A stretch of 64,000 nucleotides of DNA from an uncultured Bacteroidales bacterium. GTDB taxonomy: Bacteria; Bacteroidota; Bacteroidia; Bacteroidales; F082. The stretch's first letter is position 1; the number at the start of each line of letters is the position of its first letter. Both the position numbers and the translations under genes were made by a program. The notes beneath the pieces were generated by a model, which was given only the letters and a program-made list of their open reading frames with translations, was not told the origin of the DNA and searched no databases. The stretch covers positions 1,993 to 65,992 of the forward strand of contig CAMJRR010000012.1 of NCBI GenBank assembly GCA_946408345.1, read 5' to 3'. Shown in pieces: positions 300-61,022 of the stretch.

Positions 300-1760
300 T
301 CAAACAAACAGGTCTTCCGCCGTCACTTCTGAATCTACAACTTCTTTGTTTGCCCCATCGGCGACTCCGAAAGTGGTGATGAAAGTGCTAATCAATCCGT
401 AAGAAACCTTCTCCTTCTCCTTGAACAGTTGAATCCTTCTGCGAACATCATCGGCGTATGATTTCTTGATGGCAAAAGGCCCCACACTGAACTTCATTTC
501 GCAAAGGTTGATGTTTCGGTCGCCCCGTTCAATCACGAGGTCAATCTGGGCCTTTTGCCCCTCTTCGTTTTTGGACGGGATATAGCGCCATGACGATGCC
601 GCCGTGGAAATGCCGGAAATTCCAAGACGCTGCCGGATTTGGGCTAGGTGCGTGAAGCAAATCAGCTCAAAAGCATGTCCCTGCCACGACTCGACGCTGT
701 GTGAATTGTAATTGTGAGTCCACCACTGCTCATCCTTGCTGTCGATGGCATCCACAAACTTGTAATAGAACAGGGTATAAAAATCCACAAGCCTGTACAA
801 AGTCCCCCGCGACTTGTTCCCGTACTGCTGGAAAGATATGATGAAGTCACAACGCTCCAAGTTCTTCAGCACTGTGGTCAGACGTTCTCCATCAAGAGAG
901 GTTGCGCCTTGGATTTCAGTATATGTCAAGCCTTCGTGGTTCCTATTCAGGAGACTCACGATCTCCAGATACTTGTCCGCCTTGTTGAATACGGCATTGT
1001 ACAGCTCGTCAAACTCCGTCCTCAGCTCAGCATTCTTGCGGAAGAAAAGACGGTCGATATTGCCGATAAGTGTCTGGCTTGGATCCAATAGACTCAGATA
1101 GAATGGTATGCCACCCATCAACATATATAGTTGCAGAATCTGGTAACGGCTCCAGGGGATGCCCTGGCTCAGCAGATATTCCTCCGTTTCCTTCAGCGTG
1201 AACGGACGGATATAGATATTGTTCGTGATTCGCGCGTGCAAGCCGCCAGGATTGTCAACCAGCTTGTCCATCATCCACGATGAGGCCGACCCACTCGCAA
1301 TCAGCATAATGTCAGACCTTCTTGCTCCCCAGCCGTTCCAAAACGACTCCAATGCTTCCACAAACTCCGACTGCGGTGTATCAATCCAAGGCATTTCATC
1401 GATGAAGATTACCTTCCGCTTCTCTTGCGGTAGCGACTCGATATATTCCTCCAGCGCATCAAATGCGTCTTCCCAAGACGAGAACTTCGGCTGAAGCTGC
1501 ATCCCGGCTGTCTTTTTCAACGCCTTCGCAAACCCTCTAAGTTGCTTCGTTTTGGACAGTTTGTGTCCTCCCACGTATGTGAAGTCATACTTCTTGTCAA
1601 AGAAAGTATCCACCAGAAACGTTTTCCCTACACGACGACGACCATACACGATGACGAACTCAGAGCGATCCGATTCATAGCAGCGTTTCAATTCCGCCAT
1701 CTCTGCCTCGCGGGCAATTATCTTCGTTTTTTTTATATCACTCATATCTTTTGCCTGCAA
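300..1760 (-). CDS. AAA+ ATPase (archaeal-ATPase/DUF234-like) with C-terminal PD-(D/E)xK-like nuclease motif
   Basis: 486-aa ORF. Walker A is GRRRVGKTF and Walker B is VIFIDEMPW. The C-terminal IDLVIERGDRNINLCEMKF matches a D...E-x-K nuclease-fold motif. Confidence 0.85.
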   Translation of the reverse strand: MQAKDMSDIKKTKIIAREAEMAELKRCYESDRSEFVIVYGRRRVGKTFLVDTFFDKKYDFTYVGGHKLSKTKQLRGFAKALKKTAGMQLQPKFSSWEDAFDALEEYIESLPQEKRKVIFIDEMPWIDTPQSEFVEALESFWNGWGARRSDIMLIASGSASSWMMDKLVDNPGGLHARITNNIYIRPFTLKETEEYLLSQGIPWSRYQILQLYMLMGGIPFYLSLLDPSQTLIGNIDRLFFRKNAELRTEFDELYNAVFNKADKYLEIVSLLNRNHEGLTYTEIQGATSLDGERLTTVLKNLERCDFIISFQQYGNKSRGTLYRLVDFYTLFYYKFVDAIDSKDEQWWTHNYNSHSVESWQGHAFELICFTHLAQIRQRLGISGISTAASSWRYIPSKNEEGQKAQIDLVIERGDRNINLCEMKFSVGPFAIKKSYADDVRRRIQLFKEKEKVSYGLISTFITTFGVADGANKEVVDSEVTAEDLFV

Positions 1761-8495: not shown

Positions 8496-10087
8496 TCCGC
8501 CTTCTCTACATCGACCTCTTTTGTGGTGCTGGTGGCACCACCACGGGCGTTGAAGCTGCCCGCATTGGCGGCAAGAAATGCGCAAAGGTGATTGCCTGCG
8601 TCAACCACGACGCCAACGCCATCCGTAGCCATGCCGCCAACCACCCCGACGCGCTCCACTTCACCGAGGACATCCGCACACTCGACATTGCGCCATTAGC
8701 CGCTCACCTGGCCAAGTGCCGCAAGCTCTATCCAGGTGCAAAGGTGGTGCTGTGGGCTTCGCTCGAATGCACCAACTTCAGCAAGGCCAAAGGTGGCTTG
8801 CCGCGTGATGCCGACAGCCGCACCCTCGCCGAACACCTCTTCCGTTACATCGAAGCCCTCAGCCCCGATTACATCCAAATCGAAAACGTGGAGGAGTTCA
8901 TGAGCTGGGGCGACATGGACGAACACGGCCACCCCATCAGCCGCGACCGTGGCCGCAGCTTCATGGCGTGGGTCAACCATGTGCGCGACTACGGCTATTA
9001 CTTCGACTACCGCATCCTCAATGCCGCCGACTATGGCGCCTACACCAGCCGCAAACGCTTCTTTGCCATCTTCGGCAAGAAAGGTCTGCCCGTGGTGTTC
9101 CCCGTGGCCACCTACGCAAAAAACGGCAACGAGGGACTGGAAATCTTCGGCGACACGATGTATCACAAATGGAAGCCCGTGCTCGAAGTTCTCGACCTTG
9201 ACGACGAAGGCACGAGCATCTTCACCCGCAAGAAACCCTTGTGCGAAAAGACCCTCAAACGCATCTATGCCGGACTGATCAAGTTTGTGGCTCACGGCAA
9301 AGACAATTTCCTCGTGAAGTACAACTCGATGAACCAAAGGGGCGAATATGTCGCGCCTGGCACTGACGAGCCAAGCCCAACCGTGGCCGTCCAGAACCGC
9401 CTTGGATTCGCCAAGGTGCAGTTCCTCAGCAAACACTTCAGCGGCGACCCCGCCAGCAAGAACACCAGCGTAGACCAGCCTGCCGGAACACTCACTTGCA
9501 AGTGCAACCAGTCGTTCATCACGGCCTATTACAGCAACGGCGACAACTGCACCCCGATTGACAGGCCGGCGCCGACCATCCCCGCCCAGGATCGTGTTGC
9601 CTTGGTCACCACGCAGTTCTACCAAAACGAGTATGGCGCAGGCGGCCAACTCTCCAGCCTTGACCAACCCAATCCCACCGTGATGCCAACACCCAAGCAG
9701 AAATTGGTGTCGGTCAAGCAGTACCTCATGAACCCCCAGTTCGACAGTGCCGGTGGCAGCATCGACCAGCCTTGTTTCACCCTCATTGCCCGCATGGATA
9801 AAATGCCGCCCTATCTCGTCACCACCAAGGAGGGTGTCGGCATTGCCATCTTTGAGGACGACTCGCCGATGACCGTCAAGATAAAGGAGTTCATGGCCTT
9901 GTATAACATCGTCGACATCCGTATGCGGATGCTGAAGGTGGACGAACTGAAGCGCATCATGGGTTTCCCGACCGACTATGTGTTAATCGGCACCCAGAGC
10001 GAACAAAAGAAATTCATCGGCAACGCGGTCGAGGTCGGCATGGCCAGGCAGCTTTGCGAAACATTAGCTAATTGTGTGAGAGTATGA
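8492..10087 (+). CDS. DNA (cytosine-5)-methyltransferase
   Basis: 531 aa. Motifs DLFCGAGG (I), LECTNFS (catalytic Cys, IV), IENV (VI) and SRKRFF (VIII). No adjacent endonuclease gene. Confidence 0.85.
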   Translation: MIRLLYIDLFCGAGGTTTGVEAARIGGKKCAKVIACVNHDANAIRSHAANHPDALHFTEDIRTLDIAPLAAHLAKCRKLYPGAKVVLWASLECTNFSKAKGGLPRDADSRTLAEHLFRYIEALSPDYIQIENVEEFMSWGDMDEHGHPISRDRGRSFMAWVNHVRDYGYYFDYRILNAADYGAYTSRKRFFAIFGKKGLPVVFPVATYAKNGNEGLEIFGDTMYHKWKPVLEVLDLDDEGTSIFTRKKPLCEKTLKRIYAGLIKFVAHGKDNFLVKYNSMNQRGEYVAPGTDEPSPTVAVQNRLGFAKVQFLSKHFSGDPASKNTSVDQPAGTLTCKCNQSFITAYYSNGDNCTPIDRPAPTIPAQDRVALVTTQFYQNEYGAGGQLSSLDQPNPTVMPTPKQKLVSVKQYLMNPQFDSAGGSIDQPCFTLIARMDKMPPYLVTTKEGVGIAIFEDDSPMTVKIKEFMALYNIVDIRMRMLKVDELKRIMGFPTDYVLIGTQSEQKKFIGNAVEVGMARQLCETLANCVRV

Positions 10088-13659: not shown

Positions 13660-16604
13660 TCAACATCGACAAACTATATGAAGCCACCAACGGCGGCGCC
13701 GACCTCTTCAAGTTCTACTTCCCCGATTTCGATCCGGGAAAGAGTTCCAAACTGGTGAAGGTGCGCGACGACGATGACCACCCTTCAGCCAGCATCTTCC
13801 GAAGTGGCGACAAATGGCTTATCAAGGATTGGGGCGGTGCCAACAACAAAGCCTATTCGATGATAGACTTTGTGATGGAGCGCGAACACCTCGAATTCAA
13901 GGAGGCTGTCGCCTTCATCGATCGCGTGTGCCAGACCAACCTGTCGGCACAGGAAGGGGAGAAGCGTACCTTTTCCGGGGCGAAGATGACCAAGGTGGCG
14001 CCGATGAACGAGAGGGTGATCATCCGTAGGCAATCCGGAAAGTTCACCAAAAAGGAACTTTCCATCCTAGGTGCCACCGACCGCAACGGAGAGCCTTGCA
14101 TCACACAAGAGACCTGCGACCAGTTCAACCTTATCCCGCTTGACGGCTATATCAACCCGACCAAGGACGGCAATGTCTCGTGGAAGGTGGAAGCCACGGA
14201 CGACTACCCCATCATGTTCTACGACTATGGCGATTGGGGAAAGATCTATCAGCCCTTCGGCGAAGTCCGATTCATGTACTATGGAAAGAAGCCGGAGCAT
14301 TGGCTGTTTGGCTGCAACCTCTTCCAGGAAGCATGGCAGAAAGCATTGAAGGGCAGCTATCCCCATGTGCCTGAGTTCAGCGGCGGCAAGAAAGCCAAGG
14401 CTGGTGAAGACGGCTATGTGGACGAACAGGAAGAGGACGAGCGATGGGAAGCCTTGACGATATGTTCAGGCCCGTCCGATGCACTCAATGTGTATCGTGC
14501 CGGGCATGTCGTCTGCTGGCCAAACAGCGAGAGCGAACCACTGACATCGGACATCATCAAGAAACTGTTACGCCTGACCCGCAATCTCTATGTGCTCTAT
14601 GATGCCGATGCTACAGGTTTGCGTAATGCCTACGACCTGGCACTACGCAACCTCGATATCCAAATCATTAGTCTGCCCGCCGACCTTGGCGAATGGCGCA
14701 CCAACAAGCGCGACAAGGACGGCAAGCCCAAGATGTGCAAGGACATCAAAGACTTTTGTATGTTCTACAAGAAGGGCCACATTGACCCATACAAGGAATT
14801 CAAGTACCGTCTTGTTAAGTTGGCCAAGCCCTTGCGGTTCTGGATCGAGTCGACCGACAAGAACGGCAAGAAGTCTTACGAAATCAGCAACGCACACCTC
14901 TACAAATTCCTTTCGGCCAATGGTTTTCACAAGATGGTGACCAACTCTGCTGGCGGTTGGGTGTTCGTGTACGTGAAAGGCAAGGTGGTGGAGGTCATCA
15001 AGGAAGAAGACATGGTGGCCCGCGTCAAGGAGTTCCTGATCGCATTCATTATGGAGAACACGGAATACTACAGCGTCATCCTCGAAAACGCCATCCATCG
15101 CTCGAAGCAAATCAATCTTGAGTCGCTGAAGAACCTTGACAATATTGAGGTCGACCTTGACGCATTCTCAGCGAAGGCGGAGTATTTCTTTTTCCGCAAC
15201 TGCATCGTGCGCATCACCGCCGATGGCATTGAGACCATCAAGCAAGACGACTGCCCCTACTATGTGCTGAAGCACAAGGTAATCCAGCACGACCTGAAAC
15301 TATGCAAGGAATTGTATGCAGCCGACTACAGCGAGACCGGACGTTGGGCTGTCGATATGCGCGATTCGTTTACCCCCGCTTCCCCCGATTATCAGGTATG
15401 GGAGGCGAATATTGACAAATTGTCCAAAAACAATGAAATGTATAGGTGTGAGGTGAGGTCGGACTTCGACTTCGTGCGCTACATCTACAACACGAGCAAC
15501 AAGTATTGGCGCGAAGAGGCTGAAGCCAAGGCCAACGGCGGCGACCTCGAACCCACGGAGCGCAAATCCATCGAGACGAATTTCCTCAACAAAGTGACCA
15601 CACTCGGCTACATGCTCACCAAGTACAAGAGCAAAGGCGATGCCCGCGCCGTGTACTGTCTGGAAACCAACGTCATGGAAGATGACGAAGGGCAGCATAA
15701 CGGAGGCACAGGCAAGTCGCTCTACATGCGCTGCACCAACAAGGTACGCAAGGAGGTCTATATCGACGGCCAGGACATGAAGAACAAAAGCTGGGACTTC
15801 CTGTTCCAGCGTGTGGATTTCGACTCCGACCTGGTGAACATCGACGACCTCGCCAGCAGCATCGACCTGAACGCTTTCCTGAACAACATCACCGGCGACA
15901 TGATTGTCAACCAGAAGAACAAGGCCGAATTCATCATCCCCTACAGTCATTCGCCCAAAATGTGCTTCACTTCCAACCACGCCATCAAGCGTTTCGGCGG
16001 TTCACTGAAGAGGCGCATCCAGTTCGTCTCTTTCAGCGACTACTACCATTCGGCCAACGACGAGGCTGGCATTGCCAAACGCTCGCCACTCACCGAGTTC
16101 GGGCGCAACCTGATTGACGACTACGACGAGAAGGACATGAACACCTTCTACAACTTCATGCTCCAGAACGTGCACACCTACATGCGTTTCGGCCTCATCG
16201 AGCCTGACATGCCCGACATCGCCATGCGCCAGATGAAAGCTAACATCGGCCTTGACTTCATCAACTGGGCAGACCAATGGTTTGAACAAGACCTGACAGG
16301 TGAAAGCCGGTTCAACAAGAACATCAATAAGGACGAGGCCTATTCAGCTTGGAAAGCCACCCTCAACTCGAAGGAACTGGGATGGGTGACTCCCAACAAG
16401 TTCAAGAAGAAACTCCAAGGCTGGTGCAAGGTGCGCGGCCATGTCTATATCCCGGAGGAGATGCGCGCCAACATGACCAAGACCGAACGCGACCGCAACG
16501 AAATCCGCTTCAAGGATGACACGGGAAGGTATGTGTACGGCTTCTATATCGAACAAAACCCGCAAACCAAGGAGGAGACGCCGGTATGGGAAGACCCCTT
16601 CTGA
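13656..16604 (+). CDS. DNA primase / P-loop helicase fusion (TOPRIM + D5/VirE-like NTPase)
   Basis: 982 aa. TOPRIM-like LYVLYDADATG, Walker A NGGTGKS and Walker B-like LVNIDDL. Confidence 0.8.
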   Translation: MINIDKLYEATNGGADLFKFYFPDFDPGKSSKLVKVRDDDDHPSASIFRSGDKWLIKDWGGANNKAYSMIDFVMEREHLEFKEAVAFIDRVCQTNLSAQEGEKRTFSGAKMTKVAPMNERVIIRRQSGKFTKKELSILGATDRNGEPCITQETCDQFNLIPLDGYINPTKDGNVSWKVEATDDYPIMFYDYGDWGKIYQPFGEVRFMYYGKKPEHWLFGCNLFQEAWQKALKGSYPHVPEFSGGKKAKAGEDGYVDEQEEDERWEALTICSGPSDALNVYRAGHVVCWPNSESEPLTSDIIKKLLRLTRNLYVLYDADATGLRNAYDLALRNLDIQIISLPADLGEWRTNKRDKDGKPKMCKDIKDFCMFYKKGHIDPYKEFKYRLVKLAKPLRFWIESTDKNGKKSYEISNAHLYKFLSANGFHKMVTNSAGGWVFVYVKGKVVEVIKEEDMVARVKEFLIAFIMENTEYYSVILENAIHRSKQINLESLKNLDNIEVDLDAFSAKAEYFFFRNCIVRITADGIETIKQDDCPYYVLKHKVIQHDLKLCKELYAADYSETGRWAVDMRDSFTPASPDYQVWEANIDKLSKNNEMYRCEVRSDFDFVRYIYNTSNKYWREEAEAKANGGDLEPTERKSIETNFLNKVTTLGYMLTKYKSKGDARAVYCLETNVMEDDEGQHNGGTGKSLYMRCTNKVRKEVYIDGQDMKNKSWDFLFQRVDFDSDLVNIDDLASSIDLNAFLNNITGDMIVNQKNKAEFIIPYSHSPKMCFTSNHAIKRFGGSLKRRIQFVSFSDYYHSANDEAGIAKRSPLTEFGRNLIDDYDEKDMNTFYNFMLQNVHTYMRFGLIEPDMPDIAMRQMKANIGLDFINWADQWFEQDLTGESRFNKNINKDEAYSAWKATLNSKELGWVTPNKFKKKLQGWCKVRGHVYIPEEMRANMTKTERDRNEIRFKDDTGRYVYGFYIEQNPQTKEETPVWEDPF

Positions 16605-16668
16605 TCCGGCTTCCTCTTTTTTTTCGCTCTTTGAAATTTTTCACCGTCACAACCGCTCTTTCTATCTC

Positions 16669-16908
16669 TTGACATTTTGACATTTTGACATAGAAGAAAA
16701 TAAATCAATGGAAATCAATAAAATAAGTTATGTCAAAAATTTGTCAAGTCAAAAATCGCCGAAAATTTTTGACATAGAAAGCGCGAAAATTGACACGCTT
16801 GAAAATCAAGTAGTTACAAAATCCATGTCAAAATGCCGTTTTGCACGAAAAATGATTTTGACACGGCTAACACACTGAAAACCAATTGTGTCAAAATTAA
16901 TGTCAAAA
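16669..16908. repeat. array of at least 10 TTTTGACA / TGTCAAAA octamers in both orientations (iterons / origin or activator sites)
   Basis: Forward copies at 16669-16690 (three in tandem), 16767, 16789 and 16857. Reverse copies at 16731, 16748, 16826, 16889 and 16901. TCAAAATTAATGT is also duplicated at 16891-16922. Confidence 0.75.
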
Positions 16909-16990
16909 AATCAAAATTAATGTGGTATTGGAAGGTTGAACGGTGGAACATCAAGAAAACTGAATTATCAACAACAAAACGCAATACAAA

Positions 16991-23163: not shown

Positions 23164-23728
23164 TGAAAATCTACAACTCATCGAGAACAATATGTTCCTC
23201 CCTGAAGAGAGTCGCAAACCTTTAACAGAAAGCCAATGCAAATTGCTTGAAGAGGTGACGGATTGCTACCACGTACAACTCCAAAAACCAATGATCAGCC
23301 GCGCGTCTCTACGTGATTATCTCATTAATAAGTACAAGCTGACTAAGACTCAGGCATACCGCGTCATCCAGTATGCTGCAGTCATCCTTGGCAACGTGCA
23401 ACCAACGCACAAAAACTTCATACGACAACGAGTTGAGTTCCTATCTGAGAAAGCCTACGAAGCCATCGAGGCTACAGATTACCGGCGTGCTGATGCTCTG
23501 ACAAAGTTGGCCAAGGTGCTCTCCAAAGCCTTTGCCACCAATATTGATGAAGGTGAGCTCATCAATGCGCAGAAGTATCTCGAAATCGATGTGGTGAACA
23601 TCACCATCGACCCCACAGCACTCGGCATCAAGACCAGCGAAGCAAAGCAAAGGGAAATCAATAAGATGCTCCGCAAATACGAGATTGAAGACGCTGAAAT
23701 CATTCCACCAGAGGAGGATAAGGAATGA
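23156..23728 (+). CDS. hypothetical protein (packaging module)
   Basis: 190-aa ORF overlapping both neighbours. Confidence 0.6.
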   Translation: MRDENLQLIENNMFLPEESRKPLTESQCKLLEEVTDCYHVQLQKPMISRASLRDYLINKYKLTKTQAYRVIQYAAVILGNVQPTHKNFIRQRVEFLSEKAYEAIEATDYRRADALTKLAKVLSKAFATNIDEGELINAQKYLEIDVVNITIDPTALGIKTSEAKQREINKMLRKYEIEDAEIIPPEEDKE

Positions 23729-25311
23729 ATAACCTCTATCTCCATCCTGGCCAACTCCGCTACAAACTGGTTGATCCACGCGATTCGGTCAACATCTGCA
23801 GCCGTCGATGGGGCAAATCCTTCATCATTGCCATGCGTATCATGGGCAACGTGCTGGAGATGCCTGGCAGCCTCGGTGTGTTCGTGGCCAGCAGTTTCCG
23901 TCAAGCCCATGCCCGCACCCTGCCTTCGGCTCTCATGGCCATGGATGCCTTCGGATGGAAGCGCGATATCCATTATGTGATTGGCCATCGACCCGACCCG
24001 CGTTTAGGCTTCAAGGAACCCATCTTCTGCCCAAGCGACCTGAAAGATGTGATATGGTTTGCCAACGGCACGATTATGATGATCGTGAGCCAGGAGGTAG
24101 TGCTGTCGGCCAACTCCCTTACCATCCACTGGCTCGTCGCCGATGAAGCCAAGGGCCTCGACTACGACAAACTTTCCAACGAGATACTCCCCGCCATCGG
24201 TGGTAGCTCCATCTACTTCAACGACCCAGCAAAATATCCTCACCTCTGGGGCACAACCTACACGACCGATATGCCGTGCAGCAAGGAAGGTTTGTGGCTT
24301 ATCAACAAGTTCGAAAACGAATGTGACCCTGAACTGTATGAAACCATCATCGGCATGGAACTCCAAAAACGCCGACTGATGACGGAGCCTCAGAACACCT
24401 ACACCAGGCAACGCATAGCCTACCTGACACGTGCCGCAAACCTCTTGCGGTCAAAGACACTCTATTACCAGGAGCGTTCCATTTTCGACAATATCGCCGT
24501 GGTTGGCCCTGACTATGTGAAACGCTGTGAACGAAGTATGCCTGCCCTTGCCTTCAGAACATCCATCCTTTGCAAACGTATCGACAAAGTGGAAGGTATG
24601 TTCTATGAGAGCTTCGAAAAGAAAGTGCACATCTACCATGCAACGGATAACAGCCGGTTGAATGATTATAAGGAACAAAAATATGACTGTCTCCTCGACA
24701 CCGACATCGTGAGAACCAAGCCAATCGCCATCAGCTTCGACTATGGCGCACTCATCAACTGGCTTGTGGCCGCCCAGGTGCAAGGCGGCACTCACAAGAC
24801 CTTGAAGAGTTTCTACACGAAACACAAGCAACGCCTTCGCGAAGTGATTCAACTCTTCTGCGAGTATTACGAAGCCCATCCCTGCAAAACGGTGTTCTAT
24901 TACTTCGACTCCACAGCCTTGGCCACCGGCTATGTCGAAGTCGGCCACGCTGCCTACGACATTGTCCACGATGAATTGCAGAAGCACTGTTGGTACGTCA
25001 AGGATAAGCCCCTCGGAAACCCGATGGAACACGACAAGAAACACAAGATCATCAACGATGCCTTCGAAGGACGAAAGAAGCTGATGCCCATGTTCAACGC
25101 CGACAACAACGAGGAACTGATCCAGGCAATGATGTTGGCTGAAGTGGTGATAGGTTCCAAAGGGGTACGCAAGGACAAATCCGGTGAAAAGACCATCGAG
25201 AGCGACACCAACCTGCCCTTGGAACTCCGCACCGATGGCACCGACGCATGGGACACCAACTTCCTCGGCTGCCTTACCCATCCTTACGATGACGATTTCA
25301 TCTATGGGTAG
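23725..25311 (+). CDS. terL: terminase large subunit
   Basis: 528 aa. Walker A-like SRRWGKS and Walker B-like HWLVADEA. Size and position are typical. Confidence 0.8.
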   Translation: MNNLYLHPGQLRYKLVDPRDSVNICSRRWGKSFIIAMRIMGNVLEMPGSLGVFVASSFRQAHARTLPSALMAMDAFGWKRDIHYVIGHRPDPRLGFKEPIFCPSDLKDVIWFANGTIMMIVSQEVVLSANSLTIHWLVADEAKGLDYDKLSNEILPAIGGSSIYFNDPAKYPHLWGTTYTTDMPCSKEGLWLINKFENECDPELYETIIGMELQKRRLMTEPQNTYTRQRIAYLTRAANLLRSKTLYYQERSIFDNIAVVGPDYVKRCERSMPALAFRTSILCKRIDKVEGMFYESFEKKVHIYHATDNSRLNDYKEQKYDCLLDTDIVRTKPIAISFDYGALINWLVAAQVQGGTHKTLKSFYTKHKQRLREVIQLFCEYYEAHPCKTVFYYFDSTALATGYVEVGHAAYDIVHDELQKHCWYVKDKPLGNPMEHDKKHKIINDAFEGRKKLMPMFNADNNEELIQAMMLAEVVIGSKGVRKDKSGEKTIESDTNLPLELRTDGTDAWDTNFLGCLTHPYDDDFIYG

Positions 25312-25699: not shown

Positions 25700-25752
25700 C
25701 AGGGCTTTATTCGTTGATTGCCGATTAAGCGGGTTTCGCCGTGCTTAATTTG

Positions 25753-25893
25753 CAGTTTAATTTTCGGGGGTCAAAACTAAATTGGCAGTTAAGCCAAAGT
25801 AAAATATCAGTTTAATTTTCAGGGGTTAAAACTAAATTGGCAGTTAAGCCAAAGTAAAATATCAGTTTAATTTTCGGGGGTCAAAATTAAAAT
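25753..25893 (+). repeat. 55-bp tandem repeat, about 2.5 copies
   Basis: CAGTTTAATTTTCGGGGGTCAAAACTAAATTGGCAGTTAAGCCAAAGTAAAATAT starts at 25753, 25808 and 25863 (last copy partial). It is preceded by the hairpin ATTAAGC-N12-GCTTAAT. Confidence 0.85.
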
Positions 25894-25940
25894 CATCGCA
25901 AAAAAAATCGCCCAAATTGTTGCACATTCCAAAAAAGCCG

Positions 25941-25948
25941 TATATTTG
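25941..25948 (+). promoter_or_regulatory. -7 promoter box within the recurring TATATTTGCAGCG motif
   Basis: TATATTTG. The extended motif recurs at 26966 and 41284, with variants at 28937, 42739 and 42927. Confidence 0.55.
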
Positions 25949-25952
25949 CAGC

Positions 25953-26137
25953 GTTCAAACTATTCGCGGCGTAAGATGACAGCCGCACCAACAGCGGCAT
26001 TTTTTATGCCTATACATATCGATGATTAACAGAGCCAACGGCTCCGAGGGACGCGGTAGCAGTAATGCCCGTAAGGTTTGCGAATAGACCTGAACACCCC
26101 TATCGGAGCCTATTTTGTTCAATGTTCAAACTATTCG
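25953..26137 (+). promoter_or_regulatory. structured 5' leader (box / anti-box / box) of ORF 26115-26546
   Basis: The 14-mer GTTCAAACTATTCG occurs at 25953-25966 and 26124-26137. An imperfect complement lies at 26081-26095. A helix pairs 26040-26050 with 26097-26110. A terminator-like hairpin plus T-run lies at 25982-26005. Confidence 0.55.
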
Positions 26138-26546
26138 TATTATGTTCTATCCAACATCGAAGCGTTCCCAGCGTTGGGACGCCATCCAAGAGACCATCGG
26201 CGCGTGGGTCGAAAGCCGCCCCGAGCCTAAAGTGTGGAACAACAGCCTCCGCAGCCACATCTATGTAAGTTCGAAGACCCGTCGCGAGTTGCCCTACTGG
26301 GGCAGCAAGAACCCCCAAAGCACCGAGGCCATCTGCAAGCACTTCAATGAGATCATGCGCTTCGCCGTCAAGAAGGAAGAGGTGCAGCCGCATTCAGGCG
26401 CCGGCAAGCACTTCACCAAACTCATCATCCTTGAGCGCAAGATTGAGGGTTTCGGCACGGCCAAACTCACCGTGGGAGTCAACCAGGAAGGCCGCCTGAT
26501 GAATTATTGCATCACCGTGCCGCCTGCGGAGATGGCGATGGCTTGA
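26115..26546 (+). CDS. hypothetical protein (start 26115 or 26142)
   Basis: 143-aa ORF followed by a terminator. I could not defend any motif. Confidence 0.6.
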   Translation: MFNVQTIRIMFYPTSKRSQRWDAIQETIGAWVESRPEPKVWNNSLRSHIYVSSKTRRELPYWGSKNPQSTEAICKHFNEIMRFAVKKEEVQPHSGAGKHFTKLIILERKIEGFGTAKLTVGVNQEGRLMNYCITVPPAEMAMA

Positions 26547-26570
26547 GGCCGTCCCTCCTTCATCCATCCG

Positions 26571-26603
26571 AGGCGCGAGGCAATTGCCCCGCGCCTTCTT
26601 TTT
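26571..26603 (+). terminator. rho-independent terminator
   Basis: AGGCGCGAGG-caattg-CCCCGCGCCT followed by TCTTTTT. Confidence 0.7.
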
Positions 26604-34296: not shown

Positions 34297-34401
34297 GGGG
34301 ATGTCGCCCAGAGGCAGGGCATTCCGTGTAAAGGGTAGCAGAACAGAAGCACGGAGTAATAGTTCGCTTGAGAGACGCGGGTTCGAATCCCGCTTTCCCC
34401 A
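34297..34401 (+). ncRNA. aberrant 105-nt tRNA-like element
   Basis: Good D arm (GCCC-AGAGGCA-GGGC) and T arm (GCGGG-TTCGAAT-CCCGC). The acceptor GGGGATG/TTTCCCC is imperfect. The anticodon position holds an 8-bp stem with a 21-nt loop, followed by a 20-nt linker. Confidence 0.45.
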
Positions 34402-41179: not shown

Positions 41180-41283
41180 CTTTGTTACAACCTTGAAAAC
41201 GACAAAGTTCCCACAAACCGGGAGCTTTTCCTTTTTTTTCCGCAATTTTCCCACAAAAATTGTTGCACAATTGAAATAAGCTG

Positions 41284-41291
41284 TATATTTG
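41284..41291 (+). promoter_or_regulatory. -7 promoter box (TATATTTGCAGCG)
   Basis: TATATTTG. Confidence 0.55.
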
Positions 41292-41295
41292 CAGC

Positions 41296-41500
41296 GTCTA
41301 CAACATGATAGTTAGTCTATCTCGCAGGGGCGGCGGAAACAGCCCAAGACATACCGAGGGCTTTTTTTATTGCCCTCTCCGAGTAAGACCTCTGCGGTCG
41401 CCTTTCGTAACATAAAGTCCCCTCGTGGTAGACAGTCATGTTGTAGACAGCGAAACGGCGACCGCTTTCTTGTTGCCCAAACCTAAATGTCTACAACATG
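41296..41500 (+). promoter_or_regulatory. structured ~200-nt 5' leader (box / anti-box / box) occluding start codon 41498
   Basis: GTCTACAACATG occurs at 41296-41307 and 41489-41500, and the second copy contains the ATG. Its exact complement CATGTTGTAGAC lies at 41437-41448. Further helices pair 41394-41407 with 41451-41465 and 41352-41360 with 41419-41430. Confidence 0.6.
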
Positions 41501-41683
41501 CAAAATTCACAGAAGACAGCCGGAGAGACGGCGAAGACGAAGCCCGCATGGGGCGTTGTTTTAATCATCGGGATGGCGGCGGCCTGCACCATCGAAGGCA
41601 GCTTCATCGTAACGGCCATTGCAGTGGCCCTGTTCGGCCTCGGTGCCTGGCTGGGCGGTTACATGAAAGGAGGTGCGGCATGA
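41498..41683 (+). CDS. small two-TM membrane protein
   Basis: 61 aa. WGVVLIIGMAAACTI and IVTAIAVALFGLGAWLGG. Confidence 0.6.
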   Translation: MQNSQKTAGETAKTKPAWGVVLIIGMAAACTIEGSFIVTAIAVALFGLGAWLGGYMKGGAA

Positions 41684-59536: not shown

Positions 59537-60709
59537 TCAACCTTCACGGCTGAATGCCGGTGCCTTCGTGCTGATGGTATCAACCAATCGAGGATCCGCG
59601 TGGTTGGCATAGCGCGTGGTTATGCTCAGGTCGTGGTGGTCGGCGTGCTGCATGACGCTCAGCGCGTCAATGCCGCCTTTAAGCATCTCGTTGATACCAG
59701 TGTCGCGCAATGAATACAGCTGCATCTCGTCAGGCAACCCCAACGCCTCACGCATGTCCTGCCAATCCTTGCGGAATCGGCTGTAGGCCATCTGTTTCTT
59801 CCCTGGCATGTAGCCGTCGGAAAAGAGGTAGTCGCTCTTGTTGGCGTGTCGCGTCATCTTCTCCAGCCTCGTGACGAGTTCCGGAGTGAGTGACGGACTT
59901 CGCCGATAGTGTGTCTTGCTGTCATCCTCGCTTACCTCTATATATCGGTCGGCCAGCATCAGGTCTGACACATGCAGCCGCCAACACTCCTTCGGGCGTA
60001 TCAACGCCGAGAATACCAGTTCGCAAAGGACAATGTAATTCTCGTTGCGCTCCGACCAATACTTGTAGATTTCCTTCCTGACCTCGTGAGGCACCATGAT
60101 ACGCTTCTTGCCTTCCTCGCGCTTAGTCTTGATGGAGGCAAAGGGGTTTTCTTTGCAATAGAATTTCTCTATGGCGTAGGTGAAGAATGCCCGTGCTTGC
60201 TTCAGACGGTTGTTGTAGCTTCGACCATGCAAGCCTTTTTCCTGCACGATGAAGTCCATGAAGTTGGTGGCCATCACGCGGTTGAAGCCCGAAATGGCAA
60301 TCTTGCCATAGTTCTTTTCCACCCATTCCTTAAACACCTTGACGAAAGAGCGGTAATTGATCAAGGTGTCGGGGCGCACGTCGCCCGCTTTGTCGACCAG
60401 GTATTTGTCGAGCACGGCATTGATGGGTGTCAGCTCACGCGAATTGCCGGCACATCCCTCGAAGGGATTCCAGCCCGTGGCCAACTGTGTGTTTAGCCTG
60501 GTGATGACATCGGCGCAATAGGCCTTGAAGTCGGAGACTCTCGAATACTTCTTACGGATGCGGTTCATCTTGATCACCCGTCTTTCCATCGCATTGAAAG
60601 CCGGATTGAACACGCGGTATTCGATGGTCCAGCCATGCGCCGTGTATTTCAGCGATGCCGGAAGGTAGCTGATGAGAGGTTGAGAGTTTTGGGTTTTGAC
60701 GAGACACAT
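59537..60709 (-). CDS. int: tyrosine-type site-specific integrase
   Basis: 390 aa. ALIRPKE (Arg), YSLRDTG and HADHHDLSITTRY (His...Tyr). It is adjacent to attR and the tRNA. Confidence 0.85.
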   Translation of the reverse strand: MCLVKTQNSQPLISYLPASLKYTAHGWTIEYRVFNPAFNAMERRVIKMNRIRKKYSRVSDFKAYCADVITRLNTQLATGWNPFEGCAGNSRELTPINAVLDKYLVDKAGDVRPDTLINYRSFVKVFKEWVEKNYGKIAISGFNRVMATNFMDFIVQEKGLHGRSYNNRLKQARAFFTYAIEKFYCKENPFASIKTKREEGKKRIMVPHEVRKEIYKYWSERNENYIVLCELVFSALIRPKECWRLHVSDLMLADRYIEVSEDDSKTHYRRSPSLTPELVTRLEKMTRHANKSDYLFSDGYMPGKKQMAYSRFRKDWQDMREALGLPDEMQLYSLRDTGINEMLKGGIDALSVMQHADHHDLSITTRYANHADPRLVDTISTKAPAFSREG

Positions 60710-60767
60710 TTTTTTTTCTTCTTTTGTAGCCGAAACCTCAAAAGAATGAAAGTCAGTGTGTTACAAA

Positions 60768-60793
60768 TTTTGCGCCGATTTTGCGCCGATTTA
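60768..60793 (+). promoter_or_regulatory. tandem TTTTGCGCCGATTT motifs, candidate arm-type sites (right arm)
   Basis: TTTTGCGCCGATTTTGCGCCGATTT, 42-67 bp from the attR core, in the same orientation as 2292-2318. Confidence 0.5.
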
Positions 60794-60799
60794 AACTCA

Positions 60800-60826
60800 G
60801 AAAGTCAGCGTAAATCGCTGACTTTC
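60800..60826 (-). terminator. 11-bp perfect hairpin just downstream of the reconstituted tRNA-Val 3' end
   Basis: GAAAGTCAGCG-taaat-CGCTGACTTTC. This is phage-side sequence. Confidence 0.5.
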
Positions 60827-60834
60827 AGATTGTA

Positions 60835-60863
60835 GTGGGACGTACTGGACTCGAACCAGTGAC
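60835..60863. repeat. attR core (within the tRNA-Val 3' end)
   Basis: Identical to 2185-2213. Confidence 0.9.
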
Positions 60864-60910
60864 CTCTGCCGTGTGAAGGCAGCGCTCTAAACCAACTGGG
60901 CTAACGTCCC
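60836..60910 (-). tRNA. tRNA-Val (anticodon CAC)
   Basis: 75-nt cloverleaf on the reverse strand. Acceptor GGGACGT/ACGTCCC, anticodon arm CTGCC-TTCACAC-GGCAG and T loop TTCGAGT. Confidence 0.9.
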
Positions 60911-60947
60911 TCCGTTGATACAAAAGACGCTTTGCAGCGTCTTTAAG

Positions 60948-61022
60948 TGGGGCGAACAAGGATCGAACTTGTGACCTCATGCCTGTCAAGCATGCGCTCT
61001 AAACCAACTGAGCTACCGTCCC
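60948..61022 (-). tRNA. tRNA-Val (anticodon GAC)
   Basis: 75 nt. Anticodon arm CATGC-TTGACAG-GCATG and T loop TTCGATC. There is one A4:C69 acceptor mismatch. Confidence 0.8.

Follow-up and report, generated by a model that had tools for sequence, protein, structure and literature searches.

The bacteriophages P1 and P7 are heteroimmune through c4. In the GenBank record of P1, the order of the elements is promoter P1c4, a1, b1, the 77-nt c4 RNA, a2, b2, icd and ant; the C4 system of both phages is that of Citron & Schuster 1990, as cited in PMC8198154. In phage P4, the CI RNA pairs with seqA upstream and seqC downstream, which leads to transcription termination, and the short leader RNA IsrK targets its own read-through transcript in trans (PMC4825925). 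Here we analyse positions 25941-26142 of a 64,000-nt stretch of DNA from an uncultured Bacteroidales bacterium (contig CAMJRR010000012.1, assembly GCA_946408345.1; the whole stretch is called the window), a region which precedes the gene of an uncharacterised 134-aa protein. It probably serves to control a c4-type antisense-RNA cassette that belongs to a temperate Bacteroidales prophage. Judged from its sequence, the element is a real regulator of a known kind, as in P1, P7 and P4. The elements of the cassette are the following:

about 25917-25923, +: candidate -33 element TTG(C), placed by its position upstream of the -7 box
25941-25948, +: predicted -7 promoter box of Bacteroidota type, TATATTTG; the 15-mer motif GTATATTTGCAGCGT is over-represented and kept upstream of every related module
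25953-25966, +: box 1, the equivalent of P1 a1/b1, an exact repeat that covaries with the anti-box in 14/15 variants; arm a is GTTCA (25953-57), the linker AA and arm b CTATTCG (25960-66)
25966-26010, +: leader hairpin with a terminator-like core (terminator scan, folding, three leader types); seg1 GCGGC(GU) 25966-72, seg2 GCCGC 25982-86, seg3 GCGGC 25994-98, U-run 26000-05, seg4 AUGCC 26006-10
26032-26036, +: 5' flank GAGCC, read directly and kept in relatives
26040-26112, +: c4-2 RNA, with outer stem 26040-50/26097-110, hairpin 1 with apex GCAGUAAUGC, and hairpin 2 AGGU..ACCU
26081-87, +: recognition element b', CGAAUAG, the 3' part of the hairpin-2 loop
26091-95, +: recognition element a', UGAAC, the last stem nucleotide plus the junction; the ACC before it is the 3' strand of hairpin 2
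to about 26119, +: U-rich tail UAUUUUGUU, 3' of the c4-2 outer stem
26124-26137, +: box 2, corresponding to P1 a2/b2; it spans -18 to -5 of ATG 26142
26142-26546, +: regulated gene, an open reading frame (ORF) with a conserved start codon, encoding the 134-aa uncharacterised protein

The c4-2 RNA and its target boxes

The Rfam scan of the whole window detected a c4-2 RNA (RF02944, clan CL00128) at 26040-26112 on the forward strand; the match spans the complete model (positions 1-79 of 79) and, at 46.1 bits, exceeds the gathering score of 41. This clan also contains the P1 C4 antisense RNA. A first-pass annotation of this DNA, made from the letters without database searches, had recognised no known class at this place; in this respect it has to be corrected, since the core is a structured antisense RNA of a curated Rfam family. 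An 81-nt stretch folds into the c4-2 structure with a minimum free energy (MFE) of -31.3 kcal/mol and z = -3.8. The outer stem that encloses two hairpins and the single-stranded 3' junction are supported by covariation, and the MFE reproduces this fold. In nine leaders, 98% of the cells in the c4-2 helices are paired, compared with 34-46% in slid controls, and seven pairs of the helices named P1, P1b and P3 are altered on both sides, a number reached in 0/500 shuffles.

The anti-box CGAATAGACCTGAAC, which had been described at 26081-26095 as complementary over 7+5 nt to each of the two boxes, is read there with exactly this complementarity. In the Rfam alignment it corresponds to the 3' part of the hairpin-2 loop plus the 3' junction, with ACC between them, and both recognition elements, b' and a', are exposed in the fold. 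In the same way, the long pairing of GGCTCCGAGGG (26040-50) with the opposite strand CCCCTATCGGAGCC (26097-110) is the outer stem of c4-2. GAGCC, GCCGC-N7-GCGGC-ATTTTTT and the GCGGC at 25966-70, which completed the pairings proposed for this region, are all present as described. By pairing with the 5 nt at the start of the c4-2 outer stem, GAGCC can form a transient alternative hairpin, and in one relative (L006) GAGUU stands opposite GACUC, a two-sided change that was checked by hand.

Regarding the targets, a search of the window found exactly two copies of the 14-mer GTTCAAACTATTCG, at 25953-25966 and 26124-26137, identical and 171 nt apart as had been claimed. With up to two mismatches there are three matches against 0.44 expected, three or more being obtained in 0/100 shuffles; the sole additional match lies at 16274. 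The cognate duplex of the RNA has an energy of -17.6 kcal/mol with box 1 and of -15.9 kcal/mol with box 2. Box 1 starts 5 nt after the -7 box, which is indeed present upstream of it at 25941-48; the promoter consensus of Bacteroidota is TAnnTTTG at -7 and TTTG at -33 (PMC7366714). Box 2, in turn, overlies the A-rich region at -11 to -15 that Bacteroidota mRNAs without a Shine-Dalgarno (SD) sequence use at initiation (PMC7366714). Two candidate ATGs had been proposed for the gene, of which only that at 26142 is borne out by its conservation, as position 26115 holds TTG and not ATG. The nearby ATG at 26122-24 is out of frame and reads AACG in a relative (L143), and both ATG 26122 and TTG 26115 were rejected as start codons. 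In another relative (L002a), an in-frame TAG precedes the counterpart of ATG 26142.

In the mechanism that we propose, a single promoter would give a transcript carrying, in this order, box 1, the terminator-like hairpin, the c4-2 RNA of ~73 nt with its U-rich tail, box 2 and ATG 26142. A U-rich tail follows the c4-2 outer stem in all modules, which suggests that the 3' end of c4-2 is made by termination and the mRNA by read-through. By analogy with P1 and P7, the c4-2 RNA would be released by termination and/or processing, and its a' and b' elements would pair with box 2 on the read-through mRNA, occluding positions -18 to -5 and repressing the translation of the 134-aa protein. A diffusible c4-2 RNA would likewise repress an incoming phage of the same specificity. 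In the P1/P7 design, RNase P makes the 5' end of the mature RNA, which acts in trans and confers immunity. For the window, hints of an action in trans are the different specificities that reside together on one contig (L002), the two cassettes of the window and an orphan c4-2 RNA, all described below.

Relatives, co-evolution and the second cassette

Homologous loci were collected from IMG/VR, metagenomes, assemblies and metagenome-assembled genomes (MAGs), and a covariance model of our own, R1, was built from six c4-2 RNAs. With R1, a c4-2 RNA was found directly upstream of every sampled close homolog of the 134-aa gene. The related loci occur in uncultured rumen and gut Bacteroidia/Bacteroidales MAGs. 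The Rfam gathering scan of the genome loci was discarded as sole detector, being unfit for this clade, in which it missed clear members.

The three sites co-evolve. The clade of the window contains 15 distinct (b', a') variants, and a cognate box 1 (-83 to -93) together with a cognate box 2 (+12 to +14) is present in 14 of them; in these, the anti-box and both boxes have changed together. The cognate pairing reaches 96% and 95% for the two boxes, against an average of 78% for the best non-cognate placement, and the duplex energies range from -13 to -21 kcal/mol for cognate combinations and mostly from -2 to -10 kcal/mol for non-cognate ones. Identity is 63% in the specificity columns and 81% in the remaining leader (59% and 95%, respectively, when L002a is compared with L004). 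The boxes vary between close relatives while the scaffold is constant, which is how a programmable antisense specificity determinant behaves, and not a ligand-binding aptamer. Examples of the b' loop and of the b arm in both boxes are:

window: CGAAUAG / CUAUUCG
L001: CAGAUUG / CAAUCUG
L002a: CACUAGG / CCUAGUG
L002b (b' loop / b arm): CUCUUAG / UUAAGAG; the a arm is altered too, GUCUAA / UUAGAC
L006: CUUUGAAGA / UCUUCAAAG

Several loci carry more than one cassette, or only a part of one. Contig L002 has two c4-2 cassettes, at 787-860(-) and 9205-9278(-), with the specificities CACUAGG/UUGAAC and CUCUUAG/UUAGAC, and both precede paralogs of one protein. Two c4-2 cassettes are also found on a single contig in L138/L139 (1395-1469 and 3374-3417). 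The orphan c4-2 RNA (b' CGGUUAG, a' UUGAAC) lies at 11581-11652 in L196 and at 2663-2734 in L197; a promoter motif, box 1 and box 2 are absent nearby, and a matching target is absent from the whole 14.9-kb locus. This copy could be a stand-alone trans-acting RNA or a remnant.

Distant homologs of the 134-aa protein (24-34% identity, L150-L164) have neither a c4-2 RNA nor a box triple, and added nothing to the covariation. Those with 31-34% identity (L150-L161) have short 5' untranslated regions and repeated CGACARCAAACGAC-like motifs ~100-250 nt upstream of the gene, which suggests that this gene family is controlled differently there, probably by a protein. In several relatives, a gene for a HicA toxin (PF07927) and a 133-aa ORF lie just upstream of the c4-2 cassette; the HicA genes are located as follows:

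L128, 553-744: HicA-toxin gene (PF07927)
L132, 133-324: HicA-toxin gene (PF07927)
L139, 546-734: HicA-toxin gene (PF07927)

The related phage contig L006 has an RT-3 RNA (RF03068, 71.7 bits) at 1124-1293, about 1 kb before its c4-2 cassette; in the window no counterpart was detected at the gathering score.

The recurrence of the design at 41284-41500 was claimed from the beginning and holds: the layout is the same with other boxes, GTCTACAACATG being present twice plus once as its reverse complement, an arrangement found in 0/100 shuffles. This second cassette stands behind a promoter 15-mer identical to that of the first one, and consists of:

41284-41500, +: second cassette, same layout on a different scaffold
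41284-91, +: -7 box
41296-307, +: box 1, GTCTACAACATG
41394-41465, +: RNA, GCGGUCGCC...GGCGACCGC
41437-448, +: anti-box, the reverse complement of GTCTACAACATG
41489-500, +: box 2, GTCTACAACATG

Box 2 of this cassette includes the start codon ATG 41498 of a 61-aa membrane protein (41498-41683). The RNA gave no match in Rfam and none with our c4-2 model R1. Its consensus fold is a long hairpin GCGGUCGCC-UUUCG...CGAAA-GGCGACCGC plus a small apical hairpin, with the 12-nt anti-box on the 3' side of the long hairpin. An inner helix that would mask the 5' half of the anti-box is tentative, given that RNAalifold returned it with five sequences and not with six, and its duplex energies are weak (-3 to -5 kcal/mol). 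The palindromic pattern GCGGTCGCC..GGCGACCGC matched at least 120 loci in IMG/VR; among the matches listed, besides L060, which is the contig of L005 found again, only L055, L092 and L121 were relevant, and a tighter pattern added L180 only. The family has six members (window, L005, L055, L092, L121, L180), each with a box of its own that is matched at the three sites. Most cognate combinations have energies of -17 to -20 kcal/mol (-11.7 for box 2 of L121), compared with -1 to -14 kcal/mol for non-cognate ones. In L006, L189 and L193, genes that share the N-terminal region with the second target are preceded instead by c4-2-type RNAs; thus, as genes of the same type carry either RNA, both scaffolds appear to be functionally interchangeable. 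Of the whole system, this second scaffold has been described least.

The leader hairpin and the rival explanations

The sequence GCCGC-N7-GCGGC-ATTTTTT at 25982-26005 was also reported by a consensus terminator scan. In the ten leaders that were folded, the read-through RNA forms one nested hairpin, in which seg1:seg4 surrounds seg2:seg3 plus the U-run; seg1 GGCGU (25968-72) pairs with seg4 AUGCC (26006-10), and seg2:seg3 is GCCGC:GCGGC. Before seg3 is transcribed, seg1:seg2 is an early alternative of -7 to -9 kcal/mol. A seg3:seg4 hairpin with a U-rich loop was considered for the leader of the first cassette; it is unsupported by L006, and seg1:seg4 was preferred. In three leader types that are divergent in sequence, seg1 is complementary to both seg2 and seg4, and seg2 overlaps the 5' strand of the terminator:

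window leader: seg1 GCGGC, seg2 GCCGC, seg4 AUGCC
L006 leader: seg1 GCGGUAC, seg2 CCGC, seg4 GUACC
L189 leader: seg1 GCGUCAC, seg2 UGACGC, seg4 GUGAC

Box 1 overlaps seg1 by 2 nt, so the pairing of c4-2 with box 1 reaches into seg1. When box 1 and the next C are blocked, seg1:seg2 falls to -2.4 to -4.5 kcal/mol, a loss of 4-5 kcal/mol, and in the L189-type leader the blocking of box 1 flips the MFE from the antiterminator to the full terminator. The helix of the terminator-like hairpin with GCGGC that had been suggested as a competitor does exist and its role is plausible; any effect would need kinetics. For an upstream target copy two roles are documented, and by analogy box 1 may act either in a termination like that of P4 CI or in the way of IsrK. 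In the weaker part of our mechanism, box 1 would couple the c4-2 level back to the leader: the pairing would take 2 nt of seg1 and weaken seg1:seg2, which would favour the seg2:seg3 terminator in an autoregulation similar to that of P4 CI/seqA. Alternatively, short leader transcripts with box 1 could titrate c4-2, as with IsrK.

If this latter role were the principal one, the cassette would be of the same c4 type, with box 1 mainly a decoy: most transcripts would end at the leader terminator (about 26005), and the resulting ~55-nt RNA with box 1 would sponge c4-2 and in this way activate translation of the read-through mRNA. We regard this as possible, if somewhat doubtful. The terminator-like hairpin and U-run stand directly after box 1, the short IsrK has such an action in trans (PMC4825925), and box 1 duplexes are ~2 kcal/mol stronger than box 2 duplexes. 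In P1, where a hairpin and U-run (CCGCAG..GCGG-UAUUUUU) between b1 and c4 are partly covered by the isrK model, matches were obtained with c4-a1b1 (51.0 bits) and isrK (35.1 bits), and the stretch equivalent to the leader resembles isrK. In the window, however, neither c4-a1b1 (RF03163) nor isrK (RF01394) gave a match (25700-26400, E up to 10), and seg4, located past the U-run, pairs and covaries with seg1, which suggests selection on read-through transcripts too. Less probable still is a purely cis switch, in which the anti-box would pair with box 1 (ON) or with box 2 (OFF) according to a signal and without any diffusible RNA. All three elements are on one predicted transcript, the folding of 41297-41520 pairs the anti-box of the second cassette with its box 2 in cis, covariation alone cannot separate cis from trans, and IsrK-type loci use alternative intramolecular structures (PMC4825925). 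Yet the internal element folds stably as an autonomous RNA, is a member of an antisense family and carries a U-rich tail of its own; the boxes have diverged more quickly than the sequence around them, the orphan c4-2 has no boxes in cis, and the homologous RNA of P1 is trans-acting (P1 record; PMC8198154). Furthermore, co-resident cassettes differ in specificity, which is relevant only if the RNAs meet other transcripts. From the original proposal of a cis-acting switch or attenuator we therefore keep an RNA-level regulator in which an internal element is complementary to the 5' end and to the start region, and abandon an unrecognised cis switch.

A new class of metabolite- or ion-sensing riboswitch or attenuator controlling the 134-aa gene is very improbable. 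In its favour are the structured leader, the terminator-like hairpin with its competing helix, and a start region that is sequestered. Against it, no riboswitch family matched here at E up to 10, and the clan to which the structured core belongs is one of antisense RNAs. The exposed nucleotides, moreover, are those that vary most from one relative to another and match the boxes, contrary to what a ligand pocket would show. The covariation of boxes and anti-box argues against such a pocket, and rules out chance as well as target-site duplication. The latter had been named in the first-pass annotation as the alternative to a switch that relatives without exactly the 171-bp interval would favour. 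A mobile insertion of 171 bp with a 14-bp target-site duplication and a coincidental match of the anti-box would account for the two identical 14-bp repeats, in direct orientation and exactly 171 bp from each other; the covariation of the internal anti-box with both repeats (in 14/15 variants) excludes it. In addition, the promoter and the ORF are constant across relatives whereas the repeats differ, the interval is present in all relatives of the MFYP clade, and it encodes a recognised structured RNA, so that this explanation retains practically no likelihood.

It should be noted that several points weigh against the c4-type cassette that we prefer, or against parts of it. The absence of c4-a1b1 and isrK matches, mentioned above, is one of them. 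The Rfam score of the window is near the threshold and most close relatives are below it: the members of the clade mostly have a variant hairpin 1 (L148 scores 38.8 bits, others have E > 0.01), while the RNA of L006, with 49.7 bits against RF02944, is above the gathering score. The MFE of the window leader is the terminator whether box 1 is blocked or not, so attenuation would have to be kinetic; this step, as modelled, depends on kinetics and on covariation from only three leader types. The transcription start site, the RNA ends, the processing and the action in trans are all inferred, and an intramolecular pairing of box and anti-box is equally compatible with the covariation. Finally, the 134-aa protein is not a homolog of Icd or Ant, the cassette is monocistronic, since a hairpin plus T-run follows the gene at about 26572-26603, and a role in immunity is proposed by analogy only.

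The regulated gene, the prophage and the known systems

The 134-aa protein has 39 homologous clusters, all of them unnamed, and the Pfam and PHROGs searches gave nothing for either regulated protein. Its AlphaFold2 (AF2) model has a predicted local distance difference test score (pLDDT) of 84; compared with the PDB by Foldseek, it led to no assignment (best E 0.045, TM 0.3). In BFVD, the model resembles regions of phage proteins with LPD3 (large polyvalent protein-associated domain 3), with E from 1.4e-6 to 9e-5 and TMq of 0.59-0.67, a resemblance that we take as a weak lead and not as an assignment. A blastn 'distant' search of 25700-26600 against GenBank phages gave no match.

The window is an integrated temperate phage. 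A tyrosine integrase gene (59537-60709, -) adjoins two tRNA-Val genes (60835-60910 and 60947-61022, -), and beyond this pair there is an esterase-like gene, probably of the host; from this arrangement, 59537-61022 probably represents the att region and one end of the prophage. Other phage genes encode the large terminase subunit (23725-25311), a head protease, a DNA methyltransferase and a serine recombinase. The promoter 15-mer GTATATTTGCAGCGT occurs identically at 41283 and in degenerate form at seven more sites, i.e. nine sites against 1.4 expected. With 0-3 mismatches these are 25940, 26965, 28936, 36353(-), 36865, 40377, 41283, 42738 and 63553, and their similarity points to a class of phage promoters, of the Bacteroidota -7 type, that these sites have in common. 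Directly upstream of the c4-2 promoter, at 25753-25891, a 55-bp unit CAGTTTAATTTTCGGGGGTCAAAACTAAATTGGCAGTTAAGCCAAAGTAAAATAT is repeated in 2.5 tandem copies with 94% match, and possibly forms a series of protein-binding sites (operator or iterons). Dense direct and inverted copies of TTTTGACAT / ATGTCAAAA fill the intergenic stretch 16630-16910, after a 982-aa primase-like ORF, and this cluster looks like an origin or operator array. Rfam also reported a 105-nt 'tRNA' at 34297-34401, which ARAGORN does not report.

As regards its significance, the cassette extends the antisense-immunity design of P1 and P4 to prophages of rumen and gut Bacteroidales, in a phylum, the Bacteroidota, without SD-led initiation and without Hfq. 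The 15 variants of one clade and the six on the second scaffold form a natural data set of compensatory mutations, and such variants could supply orthogonal, programmable translational repressors for Bacteroides engineering. A wider view, which we advance tentatively and judge rather unlikely, is that these phages share a toolkit of interchangeable orthogonal cassettes on at least two scaffolds, with an antisense-triggered 5' attenuator, independent of SD sequences and Hfq, and with LPD3-like, early or anti-defence-like targets. If this were true, the shared logic would be a 5' target copy, a leader terminator, an antisense RNA and a target copy at the start codon; the binding of c4-2 would take 2 nt from the antiterminator helix, and the targets would not be antirepressors.

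Among the known systems, the immI operon of P1/P7 C4 (RF01695) is alike in its order of promoter, target pair, antisense RNA and target pair at the start of the next gene, and in the hairpin plus U-run that separates the upstream targets from the RNA. The RNA topology is also alike, with an outer stem, two hairpins, b' in a loop and a' in a junction; when P1 C4 was read and scanned, b' proved to be the hairpin-2 loop and a' the 3' junction. In both systems a few exposed nucleotides set the specificity. In contrast, there is no sequence similarity to P1 C4, the window matching only the sister model c4-2. The a and b arms of P1 are 7 to 22 nt apart and those of the window are contiguous (a-AA-b), and the targets of P1 are Icd and Ant, whereas the window has a single unrelated 134-aa protein. 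The host of the window is one of the Bacteroidales, without SD sequences and without Hfq (PMC7366714).

In P4, with CI, seqA and seqC, the antisense RNA is cut from the leader of the transcript that it controls, as proposed for c4-2, and complementary sites lie on both sides of it (PMC4825925), which gives a precedent for an upstream site that works by termination. There, the result is premature termination of the replication genes, whereas box 2 of the window is on the translation start and a termination at box 1 is inferred. In Gifsy-1 IsrK/STnc1160, as may be so in the window, the leader ends at an intrinsic terminator and read-through yields the mRNA. Farther downstream there is a structured RNA that arises by processing and has complementarity to the leader; IsrK differs in that it activates the translation of orf45-anrP, and its model has no match in the window. 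With the c4-2 motif of Rfam (RF02944; Weinberg et al. 2017, PMC5737381) the RNA of the window agrees above threshold and over the full model, whereas most members of its clade score below that threshold. No new principle emerges here; family and architecture have both been described already. What appears to be new is modest: c4-2 RNAs of Bacteroidales prophages with a complete architecture of the a1b1/a2b2 type, and with it many natural specificity variants, a target other than Ant and a second scaffold.

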